64,000 nucleotides of DNA from a plasmid: sequence record NZ_CP110908.1; one strand, given 5' to 3'. Each line of letters opens with the position of its first letter. Positions within the stretch are counted from its first letter, which is position 1. This document shows positions 36,552 to 46,612 of this stretch, in pieces. The position numbers and the translations under genes were made by a program. Below the pieces are notes generated by a model. The model had not been told where the DNA came from and did no database searches. It saw only the letters and a program-made list of their open reading frames with translations.

Positions 36552-37450
36552 TCCGGGCCGATCACATCAGGGAAGCTGTCCTCATCGTCCGGGTCAGCCT
36601 CGCCCCATTCCAGCTCGTCAGTGATGTACACGTCCGTTTCGCCGCTGACGTACCGGGCATAACCGCAGTAATTGCAGCCCTGCTCCGCAAACCAATGCTC
36701 CACTTCACCGCCATATCGCTGACTGAGTTCAGCCACAACGACCTCGCCAACCGGACTCCAGGGGGTGTCAAAATCCACCGTCAGCGTGTTCTCTCCGGCG
36801 AAACAGATATTTGACTCATAACCGACCGGCCACTTGCAACCGTACCGGGTCAGATAGTGGTCATATGACGACGGGACACCCGTCAGCAGGCCACCGTTGA
36901 AGCCGTTCACTTCAATATCCAGGCGCGTCGGCAGGACATCACGCAAATCCACTGGCTCTGCGGCAAACAAATCATCACCAGCATCGCACAGGCTGTTCCA
37001 CCATTCCTCCACCGGCGCAGGCCGGAAACTGTTTCCCCAGTCAAAAGATTTTTGCTGGTACAGCTGCCGGATGACTACCTGTTCCGGTTCACTGAGGGTA
37101 GCCCAGCGGGCATGCCCGATATGGCTGTCCAGCCAGCACTGATGCAGCGTCTGGCAGGTTTCCACATCCAGCACAGCTCCGGCCATAAACATCGCCAGCC
37201 AGTCGCTGTATGCCTGGGCTGAAGCCCGGTTGTCTGCGGCCATCCCGTGAGCAACCAGTTGCGGGTATGGCGTGTAACACAGTTCTGTCAGGGGGCGCAG
37301 TATCCCCGCACAGCCTGCCAGGAAAAGCTGAATACCGTCTTTTCTGGCGCGGCGATGCAGGGACAGCCCGCCTCCGGCAATCCACGTTTTGAGGGCATCA
37401 CTGTTTTGAATACCACTGAACATCAGTCGGTTGGCACACCAGTTCGGCAT
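36515..37450 (-). CDS. Hypothetical 311-aa protein with acidic C-terminus
   Basis: Long ORF directly downstream of repeat family 2 copy 2. Confidence 0.5.
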   Translation of the reverse strand: MPNWCANRLMFSGIQNSDALKTWIAGGGLSLHRRARKDGIQLFLAGCAGILRPLTELCYTPYPQLVAHGMAADNRASAQAYSDWLAMFMAGAVLDVETCQTLHQCWLDSHIGHARWATLSEPEQVVIRQLYQQKSFDWGNSFRPAPVEEWWNSLCDAGDDLFAAEPVDLRDVLPTRLDIEVNGFNGGLLTGVPSSYDHYLTRYGCKWPVGYESNICFAGENTLTVDFDTPWSPVGEVVVAELSQRYGGEVEHWFAEQGCNYCGYARYVSGETDVYITDELEWGEADPDDEDSFPDVIGPEWIINNVAHFGG

Positions 37451-37740
37451 GGGAAGCTCCTTACACAGTCAGGGTGGGCAGGAGGCATCACCGCGATACC
37501 GTTCCCTGCCGCACGCTGCCTGTTCGTCGCGTCCGGTAACGGGTCAACGCCGACCGTGGAATAACGAGCCGACAATTCTCATCGTCGGCGAGCTTATGCC
37601 GCGAAAGCGGCTTGAAGGGCGCGCCTTAAACTGGCGAGGGTATGGCGTAAAATCACAACGACGCCGGGCCTGAGCGATAAAGACGCCCGTCCCGTGACAG
37701 GCCGGACGCGGCACACTGGCAGCGGGTGGCAGTCAGCAAC
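37451..37740. repeat. Leading-region repeat family 2, copy 2
   Basis: Homologous to 35761-36045. Confidence 0.5.
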
Positions 37741-37955
37741 AGGCGGGCAGGAATGGCCGTGGTGATCAGAGGATTTATGGGAAGGGAAAACACCAGAGAG
37801 GGAGCAGATGACATACCAACAGTTCTGCGCCGGTCCTCCACAGGGTTATTAACCGATTCTGTGGATAACCTGACATCTGTTTTTCCAGGCAGAACAGTTA
37901 CCTGACGGGAAACAGCAAAATTTCACTTGCAGGACAGGAAATATCTTAAATAATA

Positions 37956-37971
37956 CTGTATATGCAAACAG
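37956..37971 (+). promoter_or_regulatory. LexA (SOS) box CTGTATATGCAAACAG upstream of umuD
   Basis: Matches the CTGT-N8-ACAG consensus, 20 nt upstream of the umuD ATG. Confidence 0.6.
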
Positions 37972-37990
37972 GTGTTTTAAGAGGTATGCC

Positions 37991-38413
37991 ATGTTACTTT
38001 TTGTCGCCCCCGAACAGGAGCCGGTGCAGTCCACTGCCCCGCTGTTCACCGAACGTTGCCCGGCGGGTTTTCCGTCGCCGGCCGCCGATTACACCGAAGA
38101 AGAGCTGGACCTGAACACTTACTGTATCCGGCGTCCGGCTGCAACGTTCTTCGTCAGGGCTATCGGGGATTCGATGCGGGATATGGGTCTGCATTCCGGC
38201 GATTTAATGGTGGTCGACAAAGCAGAGAAACCCATGCAGGGGGATATCGTTATCGCGGAAACAAACGGCGAATTCACGGTTAAACGCCTGCAGCTGAAGC
38301 CCCGCATTGCCCTGCTGCCGATGAACCCGGCCTACCCCACGCTCTATCCGGAAGAACTGCAGATTTTTGGGGTGGTGACGGCTTTTATACACAAAACCCG
38401 GAGCACAGACTGA
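37991..38413 (+). CDS. umuD: UmuD/MucA-like Pol V accessory subunit (S24 peptidase)
   Basis: ...[46 protein letters not shown]... LexA-like self-cleaving fold. Confidence 0.85.
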
Positions 38414-39687
38414 TGTTTGCGCTCGCGGACGTGAATTCGTTCTATGCCAGCTGCGAAAAGGTCTTTCGCCCTGATCTGCGGAATAAACCCGTTGTCGTTC
38501 TCTCAAATAATGATGGCTGCGTCATTGCGAGAAGCCCTGAAGCGAAGCGGCTGGGCATAAAAATGGGGGTACCGTGGTTTCAGCTGAAGTTGGTGAAATT
38601 TCCGGAGCCGGTCATCGCGTTCTCCAGTAATTACGCGTTGTATGCGAGTCTCAGCAACAGAGTGATGATCCATTTAGAGGAAATGGCGCCACGGGTGGAG
38701 CAGTATTCCATTGATGAGATGTTTCTGGACATTCGCGGCATAGACCGCTGCATTAATTTTGAGGACTTCGGCCGGCAGCTGCGTGAGCACGTCCGGAACG
38801 GAACCGGCCTGACTATCGGCGTGGGTATGGGGCCAACTAAAACGCTGGCGAAGTCAGCTCAATGGGCCTCCAAAGAATGGTCGCAGTTTGGTGGCGTTCT
38901 GGCGTTAACGCCGGGAAATCCCCGCCGCACGGAAAAACTGCTCTCACTGCAGCCGGTGGAGGAAATCTGGGGGGTTGGCCGGAGAATTTCGAAAAAGCTG
39001 AACACAATGGGAGTCACCACGGCACTGCAGCTGGCGCGCGCGAACCCTGTATTTATCAGGAAGAATTTCAGCGTTGTGCTGGAGAGAACCGTCCGGGAAC
39101 TCAACGGAGAAAGCTGTATTTCGCTGGAAGAAGCGCCTCCGCCGAAACAGCAGATTGTCTGCAGCCGATCCTTTGGGGAGCGTGTTACGACGTATGAAGC
39201 CATGCGCCAGGCAGTTTGTCAGTACGCTGAGCGTGCAGCTGAAAAGCTGCGCGGCGAGCGTCAGTTCTGCAGGCATATTGCCGTGTTTGTGAAAACATCG
39301 CCATTCGCCGTAAATGAGCCCTACTACGGTAATCTGGCCAGTGAAAAACTGCTCATCCCCACGCAGGATACACGGGACATCATTGCCGCTGCCGTCAGAG
39401 CTCTGGACAGGATCTGGGTGGATGGTCACCGTTACGCAAAGGCAGGCTGTATGCTGAACGATTTCATGCCAACTGGGGTATCGCAGCTGAATTTGTTTGA
39501 TGAAGTACAGCCGTGGGAACGGAGCGAGCAGTTGATGCAAGTTCTGGATAGTATTAACCATTCCGGTCTGGGGAAAGTGTGGTTTGCGGGACGGGGCATT
39601 GCTCCTGAGTGGCAAATGAAACGAGAAATGCTTTCCCCTGCGTACACAACGCGCTGGAATGATCTCCCGGTGGCAATGATAAGATGA
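38413..39687 (+). CDS. umuC: UmuC/MucB-like Y-family DNA polymerase V catalytic subunit
   Basis: [22 protein letters not shown]...[10 protein letters not shown]... Typical UmuC N-terminus. 424 aa. Confidence 0.9.
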
Positions 39688-39700
39688 TCTGCCACCGAAA

Positions 39701-39718
39701 GATTTCGCATGCGAAATC
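39701..39718. promoter_or_regulatory. 18-bp perfect palindrome GATTTCGCATGCGAAATC (copy 1)
   Basis: Seen directly in the sequence. Intergenic, between umuC and the RES gene. Confidence 0.8.
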
Positions 39719-39735
39719 TAGGTTGTATCAACCCG

Positions 39736-41118
39736 TCAGAAATCGTCATCTGAATAGCCAGATTTCGCATGCGAAATCTCTGCTTCAGCGGCAGACAAAC
39801 TTATCTCTTTATGGCCTACCGGGGTTACTAACGATGTATACTTAACGCCCCTGATTTCATGGATCTCAATACTGCCCAACTTCAGTTCAAGTACGTCTTG
39901 CTGAGGTTTGTTTCGGGAGAGAACGGTAAACTCTCGTCTGAAATCACGATTGGTCGTTGTCATCTGAGGGTCAAACTCAGCGTAGTCATCGTCTTCTCTA
40001 TACATTGAAACTTGCGCTTCCAGTCGTCTGAGTTTGGCGTTTTTAACTGCCGATGACTTATGAAACAAGATCACATTACACGCGTTTTCCTCCCCTTGGC
40101 CAGAAGGCATTTGAGCAGACGAAAACTTGATTCCATCCAGTGAATATTTGTCCGTGATAGACAGATAATCAGCAATAGCTTGCGTAAGCAGATAGTTCGA
40201 TTCAGCGAGCTCAGGCACAACCGGCATAACTAGTTTGCGTGATAGTGTTGCTATGAAACGGCTACGCTCATATCTGACCAGATATTCAGGATCAAAACGG
40301 CTTACACCGTTTACAGCCACTCTGCCGAGTACCGTCAAATCGAGGAGACGTACAGGACGCAGTACCCGAAATTCAGAAACTACTACGAAACTACCGACCG
40401 GAGGACGGACTTCCGAAACGGCATTAGTTTTGGATGTTGCTCCATAAAATACAGATATTCCTTTCGCGTTCATCCGACCATAAGGTGCTAAATCGGAAGG
40501 AGGGGGGCCAAGCCTTGATTCTGGCATGTGCAACGCAGACTTAATGTCATCCTCGGACTTAAAAATCCGTCCACGATAAAGAGGCGTATCTGGAGTGAAA
40601 TCGGTAAAGGCTGAAGGGTGATTATCAAAGAGATAACCGAACACTTCATCAAACGTTTCAAGGGCATCATGATTGAAAAAACGATTACTTTCACGAAGCT
40701 TCTTTTCCATTAAAGCCCATTTGTTGGAAAGCTTAGAAGAAATTGATATTGCTGAGATGAAGAGTGGATCTTCACCATATTTATGTTCTTCAGTTCCCCG
40801 TTCGAACCAGCAATCCAACAGTATTTTTGAAAGGTCTTTAATCACATCGATGTTGGATGAAACCTCTTGTTCAAGAATCTCGATAAGAGGAGAACCTTCC
40901 TGAACACCATACTCATGGTCTACTTCGCCAGGAGAATAATATTTTTCTATCAGCCAGTCAGTTTTATTTCCCAATGCATGCATAGACATGGTTCGGTCTT
41001 CATTACCACAGTAGTCGCATGGTCTGTAAGAATCCGGGTCATTAATGATCATGTGAAAGAGAACCGGGTCATTCTTCAAACAGTGACTGCAAACTCTCTT
41101 GTAATTCTCGTCAAGCAT
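39736..41118 (-). CDS. Large RES-domain protein (~460 aa) with an N-terminal Cys-rich (2x CxxC) domain
   Basis: Central ...LYRGRIF...YGRMNAKGISVFYGATSKTNAVSEVRP... matches the RES toxin-domain signature. N-terminal CSHC...CDYC zinc-ribbon-like. AGGAG RBS, ATG at 41118. Confidence 0.5.
   Translation of the reverse strand: MLDENYKRVCSHCLKNDPVLFHMIINDPDSYRPCDYCGNEDRTMSMHALGNKTDWLIEKYYSPGEVDHEYGVQEGSPLIEILEQEVSSNIDVIKDLSKILLDCWFERGTEEHKYGEDPLFISAISISSKLSNKWALMEKKLRESNRFFNHDALETFDEVFGYLFDNHPSAFTDFTPDTPLYRGRIFKSEDDIKSALHMPESRLGPPPSDLAPYGRMNAKGISVFYGATSKTNAVSEVRPPVGSFVVVSEFRVLRPVRLLDLTVLGRVAVNGVSRFDPEYLVRYERSRFIATLSRKLVMPVVPELAESNYLLTQAIADYLSITDKYSLDGIKFSSAQMPSGQGEENACNVILFHKSSAVKNAKLRRLEAQVSMYREDDDYAEFDPQMTTTNRDFRREFTVLSRNKPQQDVLELKLGSIEIHEIRGVKYTSLVTPVGHKEISLSAAEAEISHAKSGYSDDDF
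39761..39778. promoter_or_regulatory. 18-bp palindrome copy 2 (inside the 3' end of the RES-domain gene, encoding EISHAKS)
   Basis: Seen directly in the sequence. Confidence 0.8.
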
Positions 41119-41135
41119 CGTGATGCTCCTGTAAA

Positions 41136-41153
41136 AATTTCGCATGCGAAATC
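41136..41153. promoter_or_regulatory. Palindrome copy 3 (aATTTCGCATGCGAAATC) overlapping the promoter/RBS region of the RES gene
   Basis: Seen directly in the sequence, 18-35 bp upstream of the RES-gene ATG. Confidence 0.75.
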
Positions 41154-41160
41154 TCAATAT

Positions 41161-41484
41161 CTAATTTCGCCGATAGAGTTCTTTAACGCTTGCAGATAGC
41201 TGGTAGTGCTGTTTTGCCCACCGCCCGTAGTTATTAACGGACTCATACTGACGCTCGGCAGCACCATCACGGTAATACTGTATATGGATAATCCCATGTA
41301 GCTGCAGATAGCTGGCTACCGTTGTTACATTATTGCGAATGAAGCGCGTGTGGCTCTGGAACACATCAAGATCAACTCCGTCCTGTCCTTCATCAAGCGC
41401 ATCAAGAATAAAAGCGATTAATGCAGAAGCGATAGAACGTCTGCCAGAGCCTGCGATACAAGCATCAAGCTCTTGAAAGGTCAT
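41161..41484 (-). CDS. Hypothetical protein (107 aa), translationally coupled within the par operon
   Basis: ATGA overlap with the upstream ORF. Confidence 0.4.
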   Translation of the reverse strand: MTFQELDACIAGSGRRSIASALIAFILDALDEGQDGVDLDVFQSHTRFIRNNVTTVASYLQLHGIIHIQYYRDGAAERQYESVNNYGRWAKQHYQLSASVKELYRRN

Positions 41485-41921
41485 GTGGATTTCCTGTTGT
41501 AACGGTAGCTGGCATCCTCTTCAATTGCCGCCACGAACCATCCGGTAGCCGTTTGCCTGTCTATGCTATCAGGCAAGGAAGCGACTAACTGCTCAAGTGG
41601 AAGTGTACGATTAGCTCTGAATATCAGCGCCGACATACCACACCAGTCCTGGTTACTTTCTGGCTTCCAGCCGATGCTGAGCATCAATGTTAACGCTGTC
41701 TGAGCTGCCCACAACGGAGTTTCAGCCGGGTTAGAGGACCATGAAAGTAACGCCGCGCCGGGTACGGGCCTGCTTCTTGTAACATATCCCAGATTGATAG
41801 CCGCTTCTGTTAATGCGGCAGCTGCTTCGGATTGAGTTCCGGGATATCGAAGCGCCCAGAGGCGGACAATTTGGCCACGGAATGCCATGGCCATTTCGGT
41901 GAACGGGGTTGATTTCATCAC
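41481..41921 (-). CDS. Hypothetical protein (146 aa), translationally coupled to parB
   Basis: ATGA overlap with the parB stop. Confidence 0.4.
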   Translation of the reverse strand: MMKSTPFTEMAMAFRGQIVRLWALRYPGTQSEAAAALTEAAINLGYVTRSRPVPGAALLSWSSNPAETPLWAAQTALTLMLSIGWKPESNQDWCGMSALIFRANRTLPLEQLVASLPDSIDRQTATGWFVAAIEEDASYRYNRKST

Positions 41922-42949
41922 TGAGAGCGCATCCCTTTGACGCGTAGTTCAGAAGCCTCAACTGAAATCTCACCAATTTCCATTTTCACCCACACATACC
42001 CAGCTTTATCTGGCGCACGGTCAGTCATTATTACCCCTTGCTGACCGTCTATCTCGACAACAACCTGCCATGTTTTTACATCTGAATTACAGTCTAAAAG
42101 CTTGGTTGATTTTTTGTTCTGAGACTTAGATTTCGCATGCGAAATCTCACCTTTGCTTTTGTTCTTAACTGCATCAAGAACAGCTTTAACCTGCGAACGT
42201 GAAATACCAGACTCTCGCGCAGCTGCGACAAGCTTCTCGGCCTCTTCGGGAGACTTTTCATTTACCTGTATCAGTGTGTATGCCAGATCGACATCGGATG
42301 TGATTTTATCCCGGAGAAGGGCGGTAACATTTTCTGGTGCATCAATGAGACGAAGGTGTTTACTGACAAATGAGGTAGGCTTACCCATTGTTTTTGCGAT
42401 CTGCTCACCCGTCATATTGAACTCATGCTTGAGCTCATAGAACGATTTTGCAGTCGCTAATGGTTTCAAACCAGACTGCTGCAGATTTTCAATGAGCTGA
42501 CCGATGATGCGTTCTTTTCTTTCCCGTGGTGGTTTACCGACATAAATATCAATGTGGGTATCACCACGCTTGCGGGCAGTGCGAACACGCGTTTCGCCTA
42601 ACCATATCTGGTAGCCACGTCTGTCACGAGGATAACAACGAGGCGGGGTAAGCATCCCTATCGTTTCGAAGGTATCAGCCATACCATCGATAATATCTTC
42701 CTCGAAGTCTTCTTCAGGTCGCACTTGTTCTTCAGCATAAACCAGATTTATATCGACACGGATTATCTGTCCATCAGGTTCGATATCCGGTCGGGCAATA
42801 TCCGCCATAATCTGGTGCGCAGCTATATCATGGTTCTGCTCATCTGGTTGTTTATTTGCAATGACCTGTTCAATATCAGAAACAACAGATGCATTTTTTT
42901 TCATTTCCTGCTGCGCCTGGAGTCGTCTCATAAACGGTTTCTTGGCCAT
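41918..42949 (-). CDS. parB: ParB partition protein (ParB/Srx N-terminal domain, GxxRxxA box)
   Basis: ...YQIWLGETRVRTARKRG... ParB box II. HTH. 343 aa. Stop overlaps parA. Confidence 0.8.
   Translation of the reverse strand: MAKKPFMRRLQAQQEMKKNASVVSDIEQVIANKQPDEQNHDIAAHQIMADIARPDIEPDGQIIRVDINLVYAEEQVRPEEDFEEDIIDGMADTFETIGMLTPPRCYPRDRRGYQIWLGETRVRTARKRGDTHIDIYVGKPPRERKERIIGQLIENLQQSGLKPLATAKSFYELKHEFNMTGEQIAKTMGKPTSFVSKHLRLIDAPENVTALLRDKITSDVDLAYTLIQVNEKSPEEAEKLVAAARESGISRSQVKAVLDAVKNKSKGEISHAKSKSQNKKSTKLLDCNSDVKTWQVVVEIDGQQGVIMTDRAPDKAGYVWVKMEIGEISVEASELRVKGMRSQ
42129..42146. promoter_or_regulatory. Palindrome copy 4 (inside the parB 3' coding region, encoding EISHAKS)
   Basis: Seen directly in the sequence. 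Confidence 0.8.
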
Positions 42950-43815
42950 TACTTACCTCCTGCGAGCAGAATAATTTTCTTAGTAAGTTCTTTATACTGA
43001 ATTGCAGGAAGACATTTGGGGTCATATTCATCAAATGAGAGACCAAGTTCGATCGCTTCCTTTGCAGCAGCAGGTACAAATGATATATAGGCGAGAATGT
43101 ATTCTTCAGAGTAGCCTTTTCCCTGAAGGATCTCGATGAGGAGATTCAGGTTCAGTGTATCAATAGGCCCCAGATATCCTTCTTTAAGTGGCTTTTTATA
43201 ATTTTTGACCTGCGTCTGCGTCACATAAGTCCCCATGAACTGCAGCGAAGGATTGTAGTTCCGCTTAATTTTCTGCATATAAGTAAGCTGTTTACCAACT
43301 GCATTACGGGCCTGCTTCTCCAGCAGGGTAGGGATCAGAAGGTAATCAGCTGACATATGCGCTGCGATCATGACATTTGAATAAGATGGCGCTGAATCAG
43401 CAATAATAAAATCAAACTGTTTCTTCAGTTCTTCAATACGGTCCCTGAAGTCGAACATGCAGTCGCTGTTTCGGTAGTTAATTTCATTAAGTTCACTGGT
43501 AGCACCGATAAAAAAGCGCCCGCCAGGAAGCTCAATCGGTCGAATCTCTGTTTCAGAAAAGAAAAGCTGATATGTATTCGCTTCACCGGGTGTAAAACTG
43601 TTACTTAAAGGTTCGCGTTCTATCTCATAAGGTAAGCCGTCAGGGAATGCCCTCTCCGTCAGACCAGTTGTCCAGTCCATATCAATTTCAAGCACACGGA
43701 AACCAGCTTCACGAAGGTCATGTGCGATTTCACTGGATGACTGCGATTTAACGATTCCGCCCTTCTGACTACATACAACGATCAGTTTTCCGATAGGTCC
43801 AATTTTCAGTGTCAT
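42949..43815 (-). CDS. parA: ParA partition ATPase (deviant Walker A KGGxxKS, no N-terminal HTH)
   Basis: MTLKIGPIGKLIVVCSQKGGIVKSQSS... AAGGA RBS before the ATG at 43815. Confidence 0.8.
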   Translation of the reverse strand: MTLKIGPIGKLIVVCSQKGGIVKSQSSSEIAHDLREAGFRVLEIDMDWTTGLTERAFPDGLPYEIEREPLSNSFTPGEANTYQLFFSETEIRPIELPGGRFFIGATSELNEINYRNSDCMFDFRDRIEELKKQFDFIIADSAPSYSNVMIAAHMSADYLLIPTLLEKQARNAVGKQLTYMQKIKRNYNPSLQFMGTYVTQTQVKNYKKPLKEGYLGPIDTLNLNLLIEILQGKGYSEEYILAYISFVPAAAKEAIELGLSFDEYDPKCLPAIQYKELTKKIILLAGGK

Positions 43816-43829
43816 GTAACAATCCTTAA

Positions 43830-43847
43830 GATTTCGCATGCGAAATG
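43830..43847. promoter_or_regulatory. Palindrome copy 5 (GATTTCGCATGCGAAATg) overlapping the parA RBS-proximal region
   Basis: Seen directly in the sequence. Confidence 0.75.
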
Positions 43848-44047
43848 TTTGAGAAGGGGCGGCACGGCTTGAAAGAGTATTTCAATAATGAAATGAATTC
43901 ATTGCGGGATTTCATACACACTCCTGTGAGTCAGGCGTTTCGCCAGGTGCAGAAGCAGCTATCTGCCACTGCGTTTGTTGTCGCGCTTTCATGACAACAC
44001 AAACAGTATACAGAGAAAATATAAGATATCAATAATGATACGCAATA

Positions 44048-44065
44048 GATTTCGCATGCGAAATC
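44048..44065. promoter_or_regulatory. Palindrome copy 6, about 230 bp upstream of parA
   Basis: Seen directly in the sequence. Confidence 0.8.
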
Positions 44066-44221
44066 ACATTTTATGTCCGTTAGTAAAAGCCGAACCAGCG
44101 GCTTTTTTACGTCACTGGTTTAATACCCTCGCCATCTGGACACTCCGATAATTCTGTCCAGTTCTGCTGGCAGCGCAGGATCTGGCCTGATAGTCTTGGG
44201 TAATAACTACAGGAGGTAGAG

Positions 44222-44440
44222 ATGACATTTTTCCTTATTATTGCGTTTGCTCTGATAGTCGTCGGTAGGCTTCTGCTGCGAAAGAGCCTAAATAAACTCC
44301 ACAATGAGTATTACCGCCGCGCTGACGAGCGGGGATGCGCGGAACGTTATGAATCGTTCGTTCGCCTTTACAATTCCAGAGATCCCCGCATTTTAGAAAT
44401 TGCTTATCTGGAAGCCATTTCCTGCACTAAGGCCGCTTGA
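44222..44440 (+). CDS. Small membrane protein (72 aa)
   Basis: Hydrophobic N-terminus. Followed by a hairpin plus T-run terminator. Confidence 0.35.
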   Translation: MTFFLIIAFALIVVGRLLLRKSLNKLHNEYYRRADERGCAERYESFVRLYNSRDPRILEIAYLEAISCTKAA

Positions 44441-44450
44441 GCGGCCTTTT
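44420..44450 (+). terminator. Rho-independent terminator (ggccgcttgagcggcc + TTTTTTAT)
   Basis: GC stem followed by a T tract. Confidence 0.5.
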
Positions 44451-44515
44451 TTATATCCCTCGTTTAATTCTCCGCTCGGTTAGACATTCAGGTATTTCTG
44501 TCCACGTCAGTTAGC

Positions 44516-44914
44516 TCAGGTCCATAACGAAAGAATCCAGCCAGCTATCACATCGTTTGAAATTGATGCGAAAACTCCACACGCGCCTCCAAGCCACCAT
44601 TTATGCTTTCCCACAAAACGCTTTAGCTTTTCCCCTCTGGTAAGTGATGCCTCATGCAATTCGATAAGCGTTATCCATTCCTGTATCTTCTGTTTATAAT
44701 AATTCCAGCTATTCTTATCTACCTGTTCCTGAGATAGCGGTTTTATTCTTCTGGAGATCCAGCCGCAGAATTCGGGAGGCATAATTTCCGATAACTCTTT
44801 TACACCAAAATCAAACCGGTGCTGGTTAAGAAGAGATATAATTTCTCTCTGTTCAGCGGTGTTAAGCCCAGCGCGGTCGCGGACTTCAATTAGTTGGTCC
44901 AGTGTCATAAGCAA
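44516..44914 (-). CDS. Hypothetical protein (~130 aa) with C-terminal TM segment
   Basis: ORF. AT-richer than the flanking sequence. Confidence 0.35.
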   Translation of the reverse strand: MLMTLDQLIEVRDRAGLNTAEQREIISLLNQHRFDFGVKELSEIMPPEFCGWISRRIKPLSQEQVDKNSWNYYKQKIQEWITLIELHEASLTRGEKLKRFVGKHKWWLGGACGVFASISNDVIAGWILSLWT

Positions 44915-45044
44915 GCCCTCTTATGGTTGAAGACCCCTATTTTATCACCTCCGGAACATGGCCGTAGAAGTCGCCCTGTTATGTCCATTTATAATAAATT
45001 TGCGTTCGCCTGGACGTTCAGTTGTTTCAGTTCACTTACTTACC

Positions 45045-45548
45045 TTACCTCCGCCAGAACGCCCACCATGCATGTTGTTTGCCCTGAAGTGCAGCTTTAT
45101 CCTGAAGTAATTCAGCACTAACTACCCCCTGAAGCATAGAAACGGAGTCTCTCGCGGCATTACGGTAGGAATCAATAAGATCACTGGGCTTTCTGAGCAA
45201 AATAAATTGCGATACTTTTGCCTGAGTATCAAACGCATAAACTCGTAATTCAGACGAAGAAGTGAGACTCACAATATTATGCAACCGCATATAATCGGTG
45301 TAGTCCTCGCCACCTGGATCACATGATTCATAAAGATATTTCTGCATTAGCAATTGCGATGAAGAAAGGAAATCTATATAGCGGTCAGTTTTTTTATCTA
45401 TATCACGCAGTCGCTGAGCTACTGCTTCTTTCCTAATTTCATGGAGGTGTGTTAATTTCAGTGTAATCCAGCCGCCAACAATGGTGATTAACGCGCCCAG
45501 ACCGATTTTAACGGCACTGTCAGCCACATCCACCCACTCAAGCGCCAT
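45045..45548 (-). CDS. Hypothetical protein (167 aa) with N-terminal TM segment
   Basis: ORF upstream of and co-oriented with 44516-44914. Confidence 0.4.
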   Translation of the reverse strand: MALEWVDVADSAVKIGLGALITIVGGWITLKLTHLHEIRKEAVAQRLRDIDKKTDRYIDFLSSSQLLMQKYLYESCDPGGEDYTDYMRLHNIVSLTSSSELRVYAFDTQAKVSQFILLRKPSDLIDSYRNAARDSVSMLQGVVSAELLQDKAALQGKQHAWWAFWRR

Positions 45549-45784
45549 CTGCTATCCCTTCTATTTCTGTGATGATCATGACTGTCAGTATAAATCCCCG
45601 GCGGATTGGACATACAGCGCTTTCTGTCCAGTTCAATCCATGCCTCGCTCTATCACCTTCAATCATGCACCAAGAATGTACAAAAAATGTTTTCTAACTT
45701 GGACATTTCGGCACTATCGGAAAAAGTGTCCAGAAAATATTTCTGGTGATCGTATTTAATTTTGTTGACCCGCTGCGCAAACCG

Positions 45785-45850
45785 TGAGTCTGTTCAGAAC
45801 TTGCTTCTGAACAGGGGAGGGGTTGGACAAGCCCGCCGGGCGCGTCAGCA
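45785..45850 (+). repeat. 65-bp element, copy 1: hairpin tgttcagaacttgcttctgaaca + GGGGTTGGACAAGCCCGCCGGGCGCGTCAG
   Basis: Directly repeated (~80% identical) at 55885-55943. Confidence 0.8.
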
Positions 45851-45970
45851 AGTCACATTGGGGTATGCTCTATATATACCATCCGAAAAAATACCGGCTA
45901 ATATTATTGTTACCACATAAGTGATACCATCATAAGCAAGACCACTTAAAAGTTACCAGAAGGACAAAAT

Positions 45971-46612
45971 ATGTTCGTTTTTGGTTACCTCCGGGCATCC
46001 ACTTCAGAGCAGGATGCCAGCCGGGCAAAAAATGCACTGAAGGCATTTGCAAACCAACATGGCCACCGTATTGCTGGCTGGTATATCGACAATGTCTCCG
46101 GTGCGACAATGAACCGTCCTGAACTGATCAGGCTTCTTGGTGATGCGGAACCTGGTGATGTGATTCTCATTGAACAGGTCGACAGGCTTACTCGACTGGA
46201 TGATGCAGGCTGGGAGACACTCAGAAAGCAAATCACCGACAAGCAGTTGGCCATCGTCAGTCTTGATTTACCAACCAGCCATCTGGCGCTATCCAGCACA
46301 GTAAGTGATGACTTCACCCGAAGCATGCTGAAGGCCGTAAATGGCATGATGCTGGATATGCTCGCCGCTATTGCCAGAAAAGACTACGAAGACCGTCGAC
46401 GTCGCCAGGCAGAGGGAATCTGTAAAGCGAAAACTGAAGGAAAATACCGGGGCAGGGTGGCCGATGCACAGAAACATGAACTGATACGTACTCTGCGCCT
46501 GGTCAACGGAAAATCGCTGCGAGAAACAGCCCGCCTGGCTGGCGTTTCCAAAATGACTGTCATCAGAGTCTGCAATGCTCAGAATGTAGAGCCAGAGACG
46601 GCTAATACCTAA
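45971..46612 (+). CDS. Serine recombinase (resolvase/invertase family)
   Basis: N-terminal FGYLRASTSEQD catalytic-Ser motif and C-terminal HTH. Confidence 0.8.
   Translation: MFVFGYLRASTSEQDASRAKNALKAFANQHGHRIAGWYIDNVSGATMNRPELIRLLGDAEPGDVILIEQVDRLTRLDDAGWETLRKQITDKQLAIVSLDLPTSHLALSSTVSDDFTRSMLKAVNGMMLDMLAAIARKDYEDRRRRQAEGICKAKTEGKYRGRVADAQKHELIRTLRLVNGKSLRETARLAGVSKMTVIRVCNAQNVEPETANT

Follow-up and report, generated by a model that had tools for sequence, protein, structure and literature searches.

The locus at positions 39,701 to 44,065 of a 64,000-nucleotide stretch of plasmid DNA (sequence record NZ_CP110908.1; the whole stretch is referred to as the window) raises the question of what a repeated palindrome does in and around a partition operon, and of how the large gene at the end of that operon belongs with it. 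The locus features five minus-strand genes in the order parA, parB, orf146, orf107, and a gene for a 460-amino acid (aa) RES-domain protein, referred to as RES. A preliminary description of the locus proposed that ParB acts on the palindrome and co-regulates or silences a toxin that targets nicotinamide adenine dinucleotide (NAD+). The reading favored here, which is held with moderate confidence, is that the locus is a ParABS partition operon, that the palindrome is the site of its ParB, and that RES is defence cargo expressed by read-through. The components are of known kinds, a KorB/ParB-type ParABS system and a member of the HEPN/RES-NTD1-RES effector family. Two features appear to be undescribed. 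One is the identity and conserved layout of the centromere/operator in a clinically dominant plasmid group, and the other is that a promoterless RES effector recurs, as many different alleles, where the par operon ends, with ParB sites on both sides. The existing annotations of the locus are generic ("ParB/RepB/Spo0J", "AAA family ATPase", "hypothetical", and "RES family NAD+ phosphorylase"). In agreement with the preliminary description, which did not recognise the arrangement as a described system, no characterised system with the composition parA-parB-orf146-orf107-RES was found in annotations or in the searchable literature. The searchable literature also yielded no description of this centromere site, and nothing relevant was found for the palindrome sequence, for the partition sites of IncR/pLVPK, or for RES in leading regions.

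A repeated palindrome and its likely link to ParB

The palindrome GATTTCGCATGCGAAATC has exactly six matches in the 64-kb window when up to 3 mismatches are allowed, whereas the random expectation from shuffles is 0.08 copies and 0 of 100 shuffles reach six. The count of six given earlier is correct, however, not every copy is perfect. Four copies are perfect palindromes and those at 41136 and 43830 each carry one mismatch at the outermost base. A 20-bp palindrome, AGATTTCGCATGCGAAATCT, is the longer form of three copies. The six copies are:

44048..44065, palindrome copy 1: perfect; just 5' of the predicted parA promoter, its centre ~58 bp before the inferred transcription start
43830..43847, palindrome copy 2: one outer mismatch; in the 5' leader, ending 2 nt before the Shine-Dalgarno (SD) sequence of parA (TAAGGA)
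42129..42146, palindrome copy 3: perfect; inside parB, encoding ISHAKS in a variable linker before the C-terminal domain
41136..41153, palindrome copy 4: one outer mismatch; in the 42-bp spacer between orf107 and RES, equivalent to the terminal site of RES-less operons
39761..39778, palindrome copy 5: perfect; inside the 3' end of RES, encoding ISHAKS
39701..39718, palindrome copy 6: perfect; between the RES stop codon and the convergent umuC stop codon

RES-less relatives feature one extra copy, which precedes the start of the SRAP (yedK-like)-umuDC genes by 18 nt. With up to 4 mismatches tolerated, the window and the complete 47.8-kb plasmid pEh23_3 each contain six sites, all of which lie within 4.4 kb. 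The arrangement is therefore similar to a parS cluster around parAB of the chromosomal style, the copies at the par promoter being operator-like, and it is unlike the plasmid-wide RK2 KorB regulon. The preliminary description had offered both comparisons, and the first of these is retained while the second, a plasmid-wide network of the KorB type, is not.

The link between the palindrome and ParB comes from comparison of related loci. When one genome per species was scanned, the exact 18-mer turned up in 51 stretches, compared to a chance expectation of about nine (596 Gb / 4^18), and tblastn searches revealed that many of these stretches adjoin homologous par operons. Four site positions are shared among the operons: just 5' of the promoter, in the leader abutting the parA SD sequence, inside parB, and after the last gene of the operon. 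All four are occupied in operons whose ParB is 70–95% identical to that of the window, and they are also occupied in Pantoea brenneri, Erwinia sp. S63, and Pantoea sp. App145, where ParB is 42–44% identical. The position of copy 1 upstream of the promoter is kept across operons with 42–95% ParB identity, and the core of copy 2 is invariant in 7 of 7 aligned loci. In a codon alignment of parB with the 42–44% identical homologues, the intragenic copy 3 is the most conserved 18-nt stretch of the gene, with an identity of 0.94–0.98 compared to a gene mean of 0.47 (the windows over copy 3, at alignment columns 832–836, give 0.94, and the peak of 0.98 lies one base along). Since the linker that surrounds this copy is rich in insertions and deletions, selection appears to act on the DNA and not on the protein. 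These results suggest that the four core copies (promoter, leader, inside parB, and operon end) are ancestral.

Two loci bear on which protein binds the palindrome. A plasmid of Pantoea sp. App145 features parAB and five sites and lacks both orf146 and orf107, so ParB, and neither of the two small proteins, is the likely binder. A Rep_3 plasmid that lacks this ParB carries a RES allele of 54% identity that is preceded by a decayed palindrome, GATTTCATACGCGAAATC, 19 nt before its ATG, the same distance from the start codon as the intact copy. Based on these comparisons, we strongly infer that the palindrome is the loading and operator site (parS/operator) of a KorB-class ParB.

A different explanation of the palindromes is that they work at the RNA level, as hairpins that terminate transcription, stabilise the transcript, or affect translation, or that they are recombination sites for the neighbouring serine recombinase. 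Each copy can fold as a 7–9-bp hairpin with energies of −5 to −12 kcal/mol, three copies are located 14–18 nt before start codons, and deletions in related plasmids end exactly at palindromes. However, the hairpins are weak (z-scores of −0.9 to −2.9), they are not followed by U-tracts, and an Rfam scan of positions 37000–46000 gave no RNA family match. One copy is located upstream of the promoter, and others are inside open reading frames (ORFs) or between convergent genes. The layout is unlike that of a res site, the sequence is homologous to a parS validated by electrophoretic mobility shift assay (EMSA), and it co-varies with the ParB family across genera, including loci that have no recombinase nearby. 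A role as RNA elements or recombinase sites is considered very improbable.

The exact 18-mer also occurs outside of the enterobacterial plasmids. Pseudomonas and Halomonas contigs each contain several exact copies near ParA/ParB homologues of 24–33% identity. Several copies are also found on a Vreelandella contig, where a ParA homologue but no ParB homologue was detected in the vicinity, and a Variovorax contig has several copies with neither homologue detected nearby. The Pseudomonas locus has no matching plasmid in PLSDB. The non-enterobacterial loci suggest a much wider ParB specificity group, probably carried on integrative elements.

The partition operon and its small genes

The preliminary description of a parA-parB-orf-orf operon is borne out, and its ParB is KorB-like. 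The features of the operon and its promoter are:

44027..44040: second inverted repeat, TATCA-tta-TGATA, overlapping the −35 box of the par promoter
44005..44032, minus strand: predicted sigma-70 promoter of the par operon, TTGATA-16-TATACT, matching 10 of 12 consensus positions
42949..43815, minus strand: parA, a 288-aa Walker-type partition ATPase
41918..42949, minus strand: parB, a 343-aa KorB-class ParB
41481..41918, minus strand: orf146, a 145-aa operon-specific all-alpha protein, read from the ATG at 41918
41161..41484, minus strand: orf107, a small operon-specific protein

The parA product matches Pfam AAA_31 (2e-21), as well as CbiA and MipZ, and the ParA-like PHROG (2e-23). It also matches the NCBIfam model ParA_partition with 4e-11, far under the curated cutoff of that model (43 vs 180 bits). 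The start of parA had been placed at 43839, however, the ATG at 43815 is the likely start. It is preceded by the SD sequence TAAGGA and is the start chosen by the Prokaryotic Genome Annotation Pipeline (PGAP) in identical plasmids. ParB matches Pfam PF08535 KorB (4e-17), HTH_ParB (3e-10), and TIGR00180 (3e-21), and it has a weak match to the C-terminal domain PF06613 KorB_C (19.5 bits vs a cutoff of 25). The best sequence matches of ParB in the PDB are Spo0J, ParB, and Noc, with an E-value of 3e-15 for Spo0J, 1e-7 for RK2 KorB 8qa8, and 4e-7 for 1r71. The gene junctions are TAATG for parA/parB, TGATG for parB/orf146, and ATGA for orf146/orf107. The ATGA overlaps described earlier throughout the operon are thus found at the last junction and not at the other two. 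Since all three junctions are start/stop overlaps, translational coupling is plausible. The best explanation of parA-parB-orf146-orf107, judged from sequence comparison, is a ParABS partition and autoregulation operon of a large IncF/IncR-type group of enterobacterial plasmids.

The 4.6-kb locus is 100% identical in at least 15 Citrobacter and Enterobacter plasmids of the IncFIB/FIC/FII type. The operon is present in 666 PLSDB records, 467 of which are from Klebsiella, and its carriers include the Klebsiella virulence plasmid pSGH10 and the resistance plasmid p1_NDM-4. In pEh23_3 this parAB is the sole partition system. The locus adjoins umuDC, and its neighbours are antirestriction (ardA-type), methylase, and DUF1380 genes. 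The small ORFs upstream of parA, at 44222–45548, have no Pfam or PADLOC match. Two contigs filed under Gram-positive organisms, Vagococcus sp. WN89Y and Streptomyces morookaense, contain enterobacterial-type umuDC and par sequences with up to 90% protein identity to the window, which are most likely assembly contamination.

The promoter was predicted by matching the sigma-70 consensus. A scan of positions 39500–44400 found four promoter-like matches, all at ~43990–44060, with TTGATA-16-TATACT being the best. The diverged Erwinia and Pantoea loci (42–44% ParB identity) feature a longer palindrome, CAGATAGAGAATCATCATTGATTCTCTATCTG, at the same place, where the repeat GAATCATCATTGATTC lies within a palindrome of ~30 bp. 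This second inverted repeat may be the operator of another regulator, perhaps the product of orf146 or orf107. In the proposed mechanism, ParB would load at the palindromes and build one local partition complex over the operon, and it would probably repress the par promoter via the two upstream copies, resulting in autoregulation.

The parA leader also contains a 29-codon ORF, MKSRNEFISLLKYSFKPCRPFSNISHAKS, at 43826–43915 on the minus strand. This ORF has a good SD sequence and ends inside palindrome copy 2, which makes it a third reading of the palindrome as ISHAKS. A conserved hairpin, GGCGAAACGCC, and the SD sequence are located directly before it. The ORF is kept in close relatives and not in the Erwinia and Pantoea loci.

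The orf146 and orf107 proteins belong to narrow, operon-specific families of 37 and 36 clusters, respectively, and neither has a Pfam, PADLOC, PHROGs, or NCBIfam match. The predicted fold of orf146 features seven helices with a predicted local distance difference test score (pLDDT) of 92.5 and weakly resembles XRE-type helix-turn-helix (HTH) proteins. The orf107 protein resembles a winged helix by eye only. A profile search of orf107 against 1.84 billion proteins retrieved 18 representatives, all from its own narrow family, and the same profile retrieved nothing from the PDB. A comparison of both proteins with the KorA-like protein ParR of plasmid NAH7 using hhalign gave probabilities below 1%, and no KorA-like partner was detected among the two.

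The location of these two genes raises the question of whether one or both encode antitoxins of RES, in which case a three-gene toxin-antitoxin (TA) unit would be appended to parAB. The orf107 gene is immediately upstream of RES, as Xre antitoxin genes are, the last ~17 codons of orf107 appear to have been swapped in with the RES allele of the window, and the resemblance of orf146 to XRE-type HTH proteins, although faint, points in the same direction. However, no DUF2384/Xre-antitoxin match was found for either protein, and RES homologues elsewhere are solitary. Both genes are kept and coupled to parB in RES-less operons and in the 42–44% diverged operons, so orf146 and orf107 are assigned as components of the par operon and not as RES antitoxins. 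An antitoxin role for either protein is given hardly any credence.

The RES gene as probable cargo of the operon

The fifth gene of the locus differs from the first four in its distribution:

39736..41118, minus strand: RES effector gene, 460 aa; Zn-ribbon, helical NTD1, RES/ART-fold (ADP-ribosyltransferase-like), and C-terminal beta domain; variable cargo

The RES toxin domain proposed earlier was confirmed by a Pfam match (PF08808, E=2e-11), and the RES protein has 709 homologues at E<=1e-5, with lengths of ~450 aa, across the Proteobacteria. The N-terminal double CxxC is also confirmed. In 35 aligned homologues Cys10, Cys34, and Cys37 of the Zn ribbon are invariant and Cys13 is at least 90% conserved. 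The central domain has an ART-like RES fold, in which R215 (GRMN), E236 (EVRPPVG), and S334 are invariant in all 35 homologues. The suggested relationship to the HEPN/RES N-terminal domain family is only partly supported by the profile. The protein of the window is below the threshold of HEPN_RES_NTD1 (PF18870; E=0.052, 14.3 bits vs a cutoff of 27.4), whereas 27 of the 35 aligned homologues match it at E<=0.01, with a best value of 8e-8. An AlphaFold2 model of RES has a pLDDT of 86 and shows that the N-terminal region is helical. Sequence searches of RES against the PDB gave noise only, PHROGs gave no match, and NCBIfam gave one spurious sub-threshold match (ornithine carbamoyltransferase, E 0.095). 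Among the closer alleles the toxin core is 61–77% conserved compared to 32–64% for the N- and C-terminal parts. The alignment leads us to infer that RES has an intact NAD+-targeting toxin core with variable sensor parts (the Zn-ribbon/NTD1 and the beta domain). In identical plasmids the starts of RES chosen by PGAP differ, 417 aa in some and 460 aa in others. The 460-aa start has an SD sequence and includes the first CxxC. Since this conserved motif is excluded from the 417-aa call, the shorter protein loses the Zn ribbon.

The 42-bp spacer between orf107 and RES contains only the palindrome and an SD sequence (AGGAG). The palindrome was previously placed over the promoter and ribosome-binding site of RES, and it is in fact located directly 5' of the SD sequence, however, the consensus sigma-70 scan found no promoter-like match in the spacer, which also has no terminator-like match. 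The par transcript therefore probably extends into RES as its distal gene.

Plasmids that share the operon differ in what follows orf107. At least five RES alleles occupy this slot, with amino acid identities of 100, 89, 66, ~59, and 53% to the RES of the window, while the flanks are otherwise ~95% identical. The allele of the window (at least 99% identity) is present in 26 PLSDB records, the slot is empty in 54 PLSDB plasmids with the same operon, and a decayed copy of the ~59% allele is found in ~516 records, mostly large Klebsiella plasmids. In pSGH10 the RES pseudogene features two frameshifts, an internal deletion of the E motif region, and a 3' end that is cut by an insertion sequence, and in pSGH10-like plasmids it is annotated as two or three separate coding sequences. 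The claim that RES is integral to partition is contradicted by the empty and decayed slots and by the RES relatives that occur without this ParB, most of which are solitary.

The boundaries of the slot coincide with palindromes. In an alignment of the window with a plasmid carrying the ~59% allele, the DNA identity falls from ~95% to ~55–60% exactly at the inner palindrome, at 39778, which makes copy 5 the right-hand homology break between RES alleles. The other homology break of the allele in the window is in the last ~17 codons of orf107, which are unlike those of other plasmids. The 66% and 59% alleles likewise end in ISHAKS. The palindrome is read in this frame (…ISHAKS…) by several alleles and in another frame by one (…FRMRNLQ). 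In empty-slot plasmids a single palindrome lies between orf107 and umuC. On its left is the sequence that flanks copy 6 on the left in the window, and on its right is the sequence that flanks copy 4 on the right. Because the palindromes are also direct repeats, the empty slot is the expected product of a deletion between two of them. A Salmonella plasmid features a smaller deletion, between copies 6 and 5. These junctions suggest that RES is optional cargo and that it inserted at the terminal site, where palindrome copies now lie on both sides of it. As direct repeats, the flanking palindromes would make RES easy to lose or to exchange.

In the plasmids compared, RES alleles or nothing are found between the terminal site and umuC. 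A general cargo hotspot at this position was considered and is partly supported, since the one other kind of cargo comes from a Pantoea plasmid without orf146 and orf107. In this plasmid, pAPP145_3 of Pantoea sp. App145, a gene for a full-length DSR1 defence sirtuin (PADLOC E=0, 1947 bits) directly follows the terminal palindrome and is convergent to parB. DSR1 is a validated NAD+-depleting defence protein, and in pAPP145_3 it is a second NAD+-depleting effector at the same flank of the par operon. Upstream of parA, Klebsiella pneumoniae p1_NDM-4 carries a gene for an Abi-family protein and one for an FRG-domain protein, so defence-like cargo can be found on either side of the par operon. Base composition was also considered as a mark of foreign origin, and it does not set RES apart from the par genes. 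RES-family genes are convergent to error-prone polymerase operons in three contexts: umuDC in the window (38413–41118), umuDC in the Rep_3 plasmid, and imuA-imuB-dnaE2 in a Cupriavidus plasmid, where the RES-family protein is 26% identical. This convergence may reflect shared ancestry in the two umuDC cases and coincidence in the Cupriavidus case.

The role of RES is suggested by the genomic contexts of its homologues. A homologue of 34% identity from E. coli, with 132 members, is located between genes G and FI of P2, which we take to be the Z/fun position. Other homologues are found in islands beside SIR2/UvrD genes, or beside phospholipase D-type (PLD)/restriction endonuclease and H-NS genes. 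In a P2-like prophage, a homologue of 40% identity occupies the interval from gpA to the portal gene, and the gpA-gpQ (old/tin) interval of P2 has been defined as a defence hotspot (PMC9122126). By analogy with these locations, the role of RES is probably abortive phage defence of the host of the plasmid. The addiction module proposed in the preliminary description is unlikely.

In the favored reading, transcription from the par promoter, which ParB would control, would continue into RES as the fifth gene. The dose of RES would then depend on ParB autoregulation, and a burst would be expected upon entry into a ParB-free cell. The protein would act as an auto-inhibited single-chain sensor-effector, in which phage infection leads to NAD+ consumption or ADP-ribosylation of a target. 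Since RES is promoterless, distal in the operon, and flanked by sites, its co-regulation by ParB is plausible.

A stronger form of this connection is that RES is a toxin gated by ParB. According to this explanation, ParB clamps at the flanking sites silence RES and loss or displacement of ParB, through plasmid loss, failed partition, or phage attack, unleashes the toxin, resulting in an integrated addiction or abortive module. Every RES allele in the slot is flanked by palindromes on both sides, with one directly before the SD sequence, and RES has no promoter of its own. The RES copy outside of a ParB plasmid has lost its palindrome, and KorB-type clamps are able to silence at a distance on RK2 (PMC11790492). 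However, plasmid loss would remove RES as well, and a labile antitoxin could not be identified. Complete operons without RES are common, and RES decays freely in Klebsiella plasmids that keep parAB. The insertion and deletion mode explains the flanking copies equally well, and no KorA-like clamp-locking partner was detected when orf146 and orf107 were compared with NAH7 ParR. The gated toxin is therefore judged unlikely. A related proposal is that ParB bound to cytidine triphosphate (CTP) forms clamps at the palindromes that bracket RES, and that these keep the promoterless effector silent or tightly dosed, so that RES output reports the integrity of the partition complex. This is a long shot. 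If true, RES would be a centromere-guarded toxin that fires when ParB is displaced or diluted by phage attack, by a ParB-titrating plasmid, or in a naive cell. It would represent a new wiring of an abortive-defence or exclusion effector into the segregation machine, one that hundreds of clinical Klebsiella, Citrobacter, and Enterobacter plasmids would carry in intact or decayed form.

RES could instead be an establishment or anti-defence gene of the leading region, expressed in a burst upon entry into a recipient before ParB accumulates and acting on NAD-dependent immunity of the host and not on phage. The locus is situated among ardA-type antirestriction, DNA methylase, and DUF1380 genes with the same direction of transcription, and a ParB-repressed promoter would give zygotic induction. 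However, RES homologues are also found in prophage defence hotspots and chromosomal islands, the combination of variable sensors with a conserved toxin core is typical of a defence effector, and no literature link was found. This function is distinctly improbable for RES.

Several observations weigh against the combined reading of a ParABS operon with RES as read-through defence cargo. The palindromes abut the ribosome-binding sites of parA, RES, and, in RES-less plasmids, the SRAP gene. Each of the three start codons is preceded by a palindrome that ends 14–18 nt away from it and immediately adjoins the SD sequence on the 5' side. This recurrent geometry is not explained by a pure centromere role and could reflect a roadblock/operator or an mRNA 5' hairpin. 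The ParB_N domain scores just under the Pfam cutoff (25.5 vs 26.3 bits), and the GERRxRA box is degenerate, being GETRVRTA in the window and GATRVRSM in relatives, so the CTP-clamp behaviour of this ParB is an assumption. The promoter scan is based on the sigma-70 consensus alone, which leaves room for a weak internal RES promoter. No model of PADLOC 2023 (PADLOC-DB 2.0) matches RES, and its defence role therefore rests on genomic location. The decay of RES in ~516 plasmids fits dispensable cargo, yet it signals that there is no strong selection for RES in Klebsiella.

The favored reading has consequences for both parts of the locus. A defined 18–20-bp site provides a handle for incompatibility-based curing, plasmid typing, and chromatin immunoprecipitation (ChIP) studies. 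The presence of the 18-mer with distant ParBs in Pseudomonas and Halomonas, together with the match of its core to the NAH7 parS, suggests that KorB-like ParBs include a broad specificity group that has gone unrecognised. The RES family, with more than 700 members, is absent from the defence catalogues searched and is a good candidate for a new single-gene defence system. ParB palindromes that are direct repeats make cargo excisable, which suggests how centromere repeats can serve as landing and exchange pads for accessory genes.

Comparison with known systems

The effector resembles three kinds of known systems. The HEPN/RES-NTD1 family (PF18870), which is computationally defined, was described by Anantharaman et al. 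in 2013 as NTD1 fused to RES, "some with a further N-terminal Zn ribbon" (PMC3710099). The RES protein of the window shares this NTD1-RES and Zn ribbon architecture, although its NTD1 is below the Pfam threshold. The Xre-RES TA systems (MbcTA, ParST, NatRT, and Res-Xre of P. putida) share the RES/ART fold and the positions of R215, E236, and S334, and by homology the expected chemistry is NAD+ phosphorolysis or ADP-ribosylation. In contrast to these toxins of ~150–250 aa, the 460-aa protein has added Zn-ribbon/NTD1 and C-terminal beta domains. It has no adjacent Xre/DUF2384 antitoxin, and its family is solitary in most contexts. The single-gene NADase cargo, represented by DSR1 and by the P2 old/tin and Z/fun genes, is similar in that RES homologues are located in both P2 hotspots, DSR1 is located at the equivalent par-flank site in Pantoea, and presence/absence and allele polymorphism occur within conserved flanks. 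However, the RES family is in no defence catalogue searched, and RES differs from this cargo in being co-oriented with and promoterless in the par operon and bracketed by ParB sites.

The partition part of the locus can be compared to chromosomal ParABS, RK2 KorB, and NAH7 ParB. Chromosomal ParABS also features several palindromic sites around parAB, one of them inside spo0J/parB, and the best PDB matches of ParB are to this group. The canonical chromosomal parS is TGTTNCACGTGAAACA. The site of the window differs from it in sequence, the context is a plasmid, and the HTH and C-terminal domains of ParB are of the KorB type.

The RK2 operator OB is TTTAGCSGCTAAA. The KorB-OB system of RK2, which works with KorA and IncC, resembles the locus in the Pfam KorB domain, in a C-terminus with a weak, sub-threshold likeness to KorB_C in the window, and in the location of the gene after a short ParA. 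It has palindromic operators at and away from promoters, a dual role in partition and repression is expected for both, and small genes trail korB, korF and korG in RK2 and orf146 and orf107 here. However, the operator sequence and spacing differ, the operator of the window being TTTCGCATGCGAAA, and the sites are confined to 4.4 kb while those of RK2 are spread over the whole plasmid. Additionally, a KorA-like partner was not detected among orf146 and orf107, and the similarity to RK2 KorB is modest (PDB 8qa8, 1e-7) and weaker than that to Spo0J.

The closest characterised site is the parS of the IncP-9 plasmid NAH7, TTTCTCGCATGCGAGAAA, which occurs in six copies and is bound by ParB in EMSA, and the NAH7 ParB also regulates transcription (PMC12421886). 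The two ParB proteins are ~23% identical and the outer bases of the half-sites differ. In contrast to the window, the sites of NAH7 lie between genes and are distributed along the backbone, its ParB activates conjugation genes, and its ParR is KorA-like, a resemblance not detected for orf146 and orf107. Both loci feature parA-parB followed by two small genes, with resolvase and Y-family polymerase genes nearby, and in both the site is an 18-bp perfect inverted repeat in six copies, with an identical central 10 bp, TCGCATGCGA.

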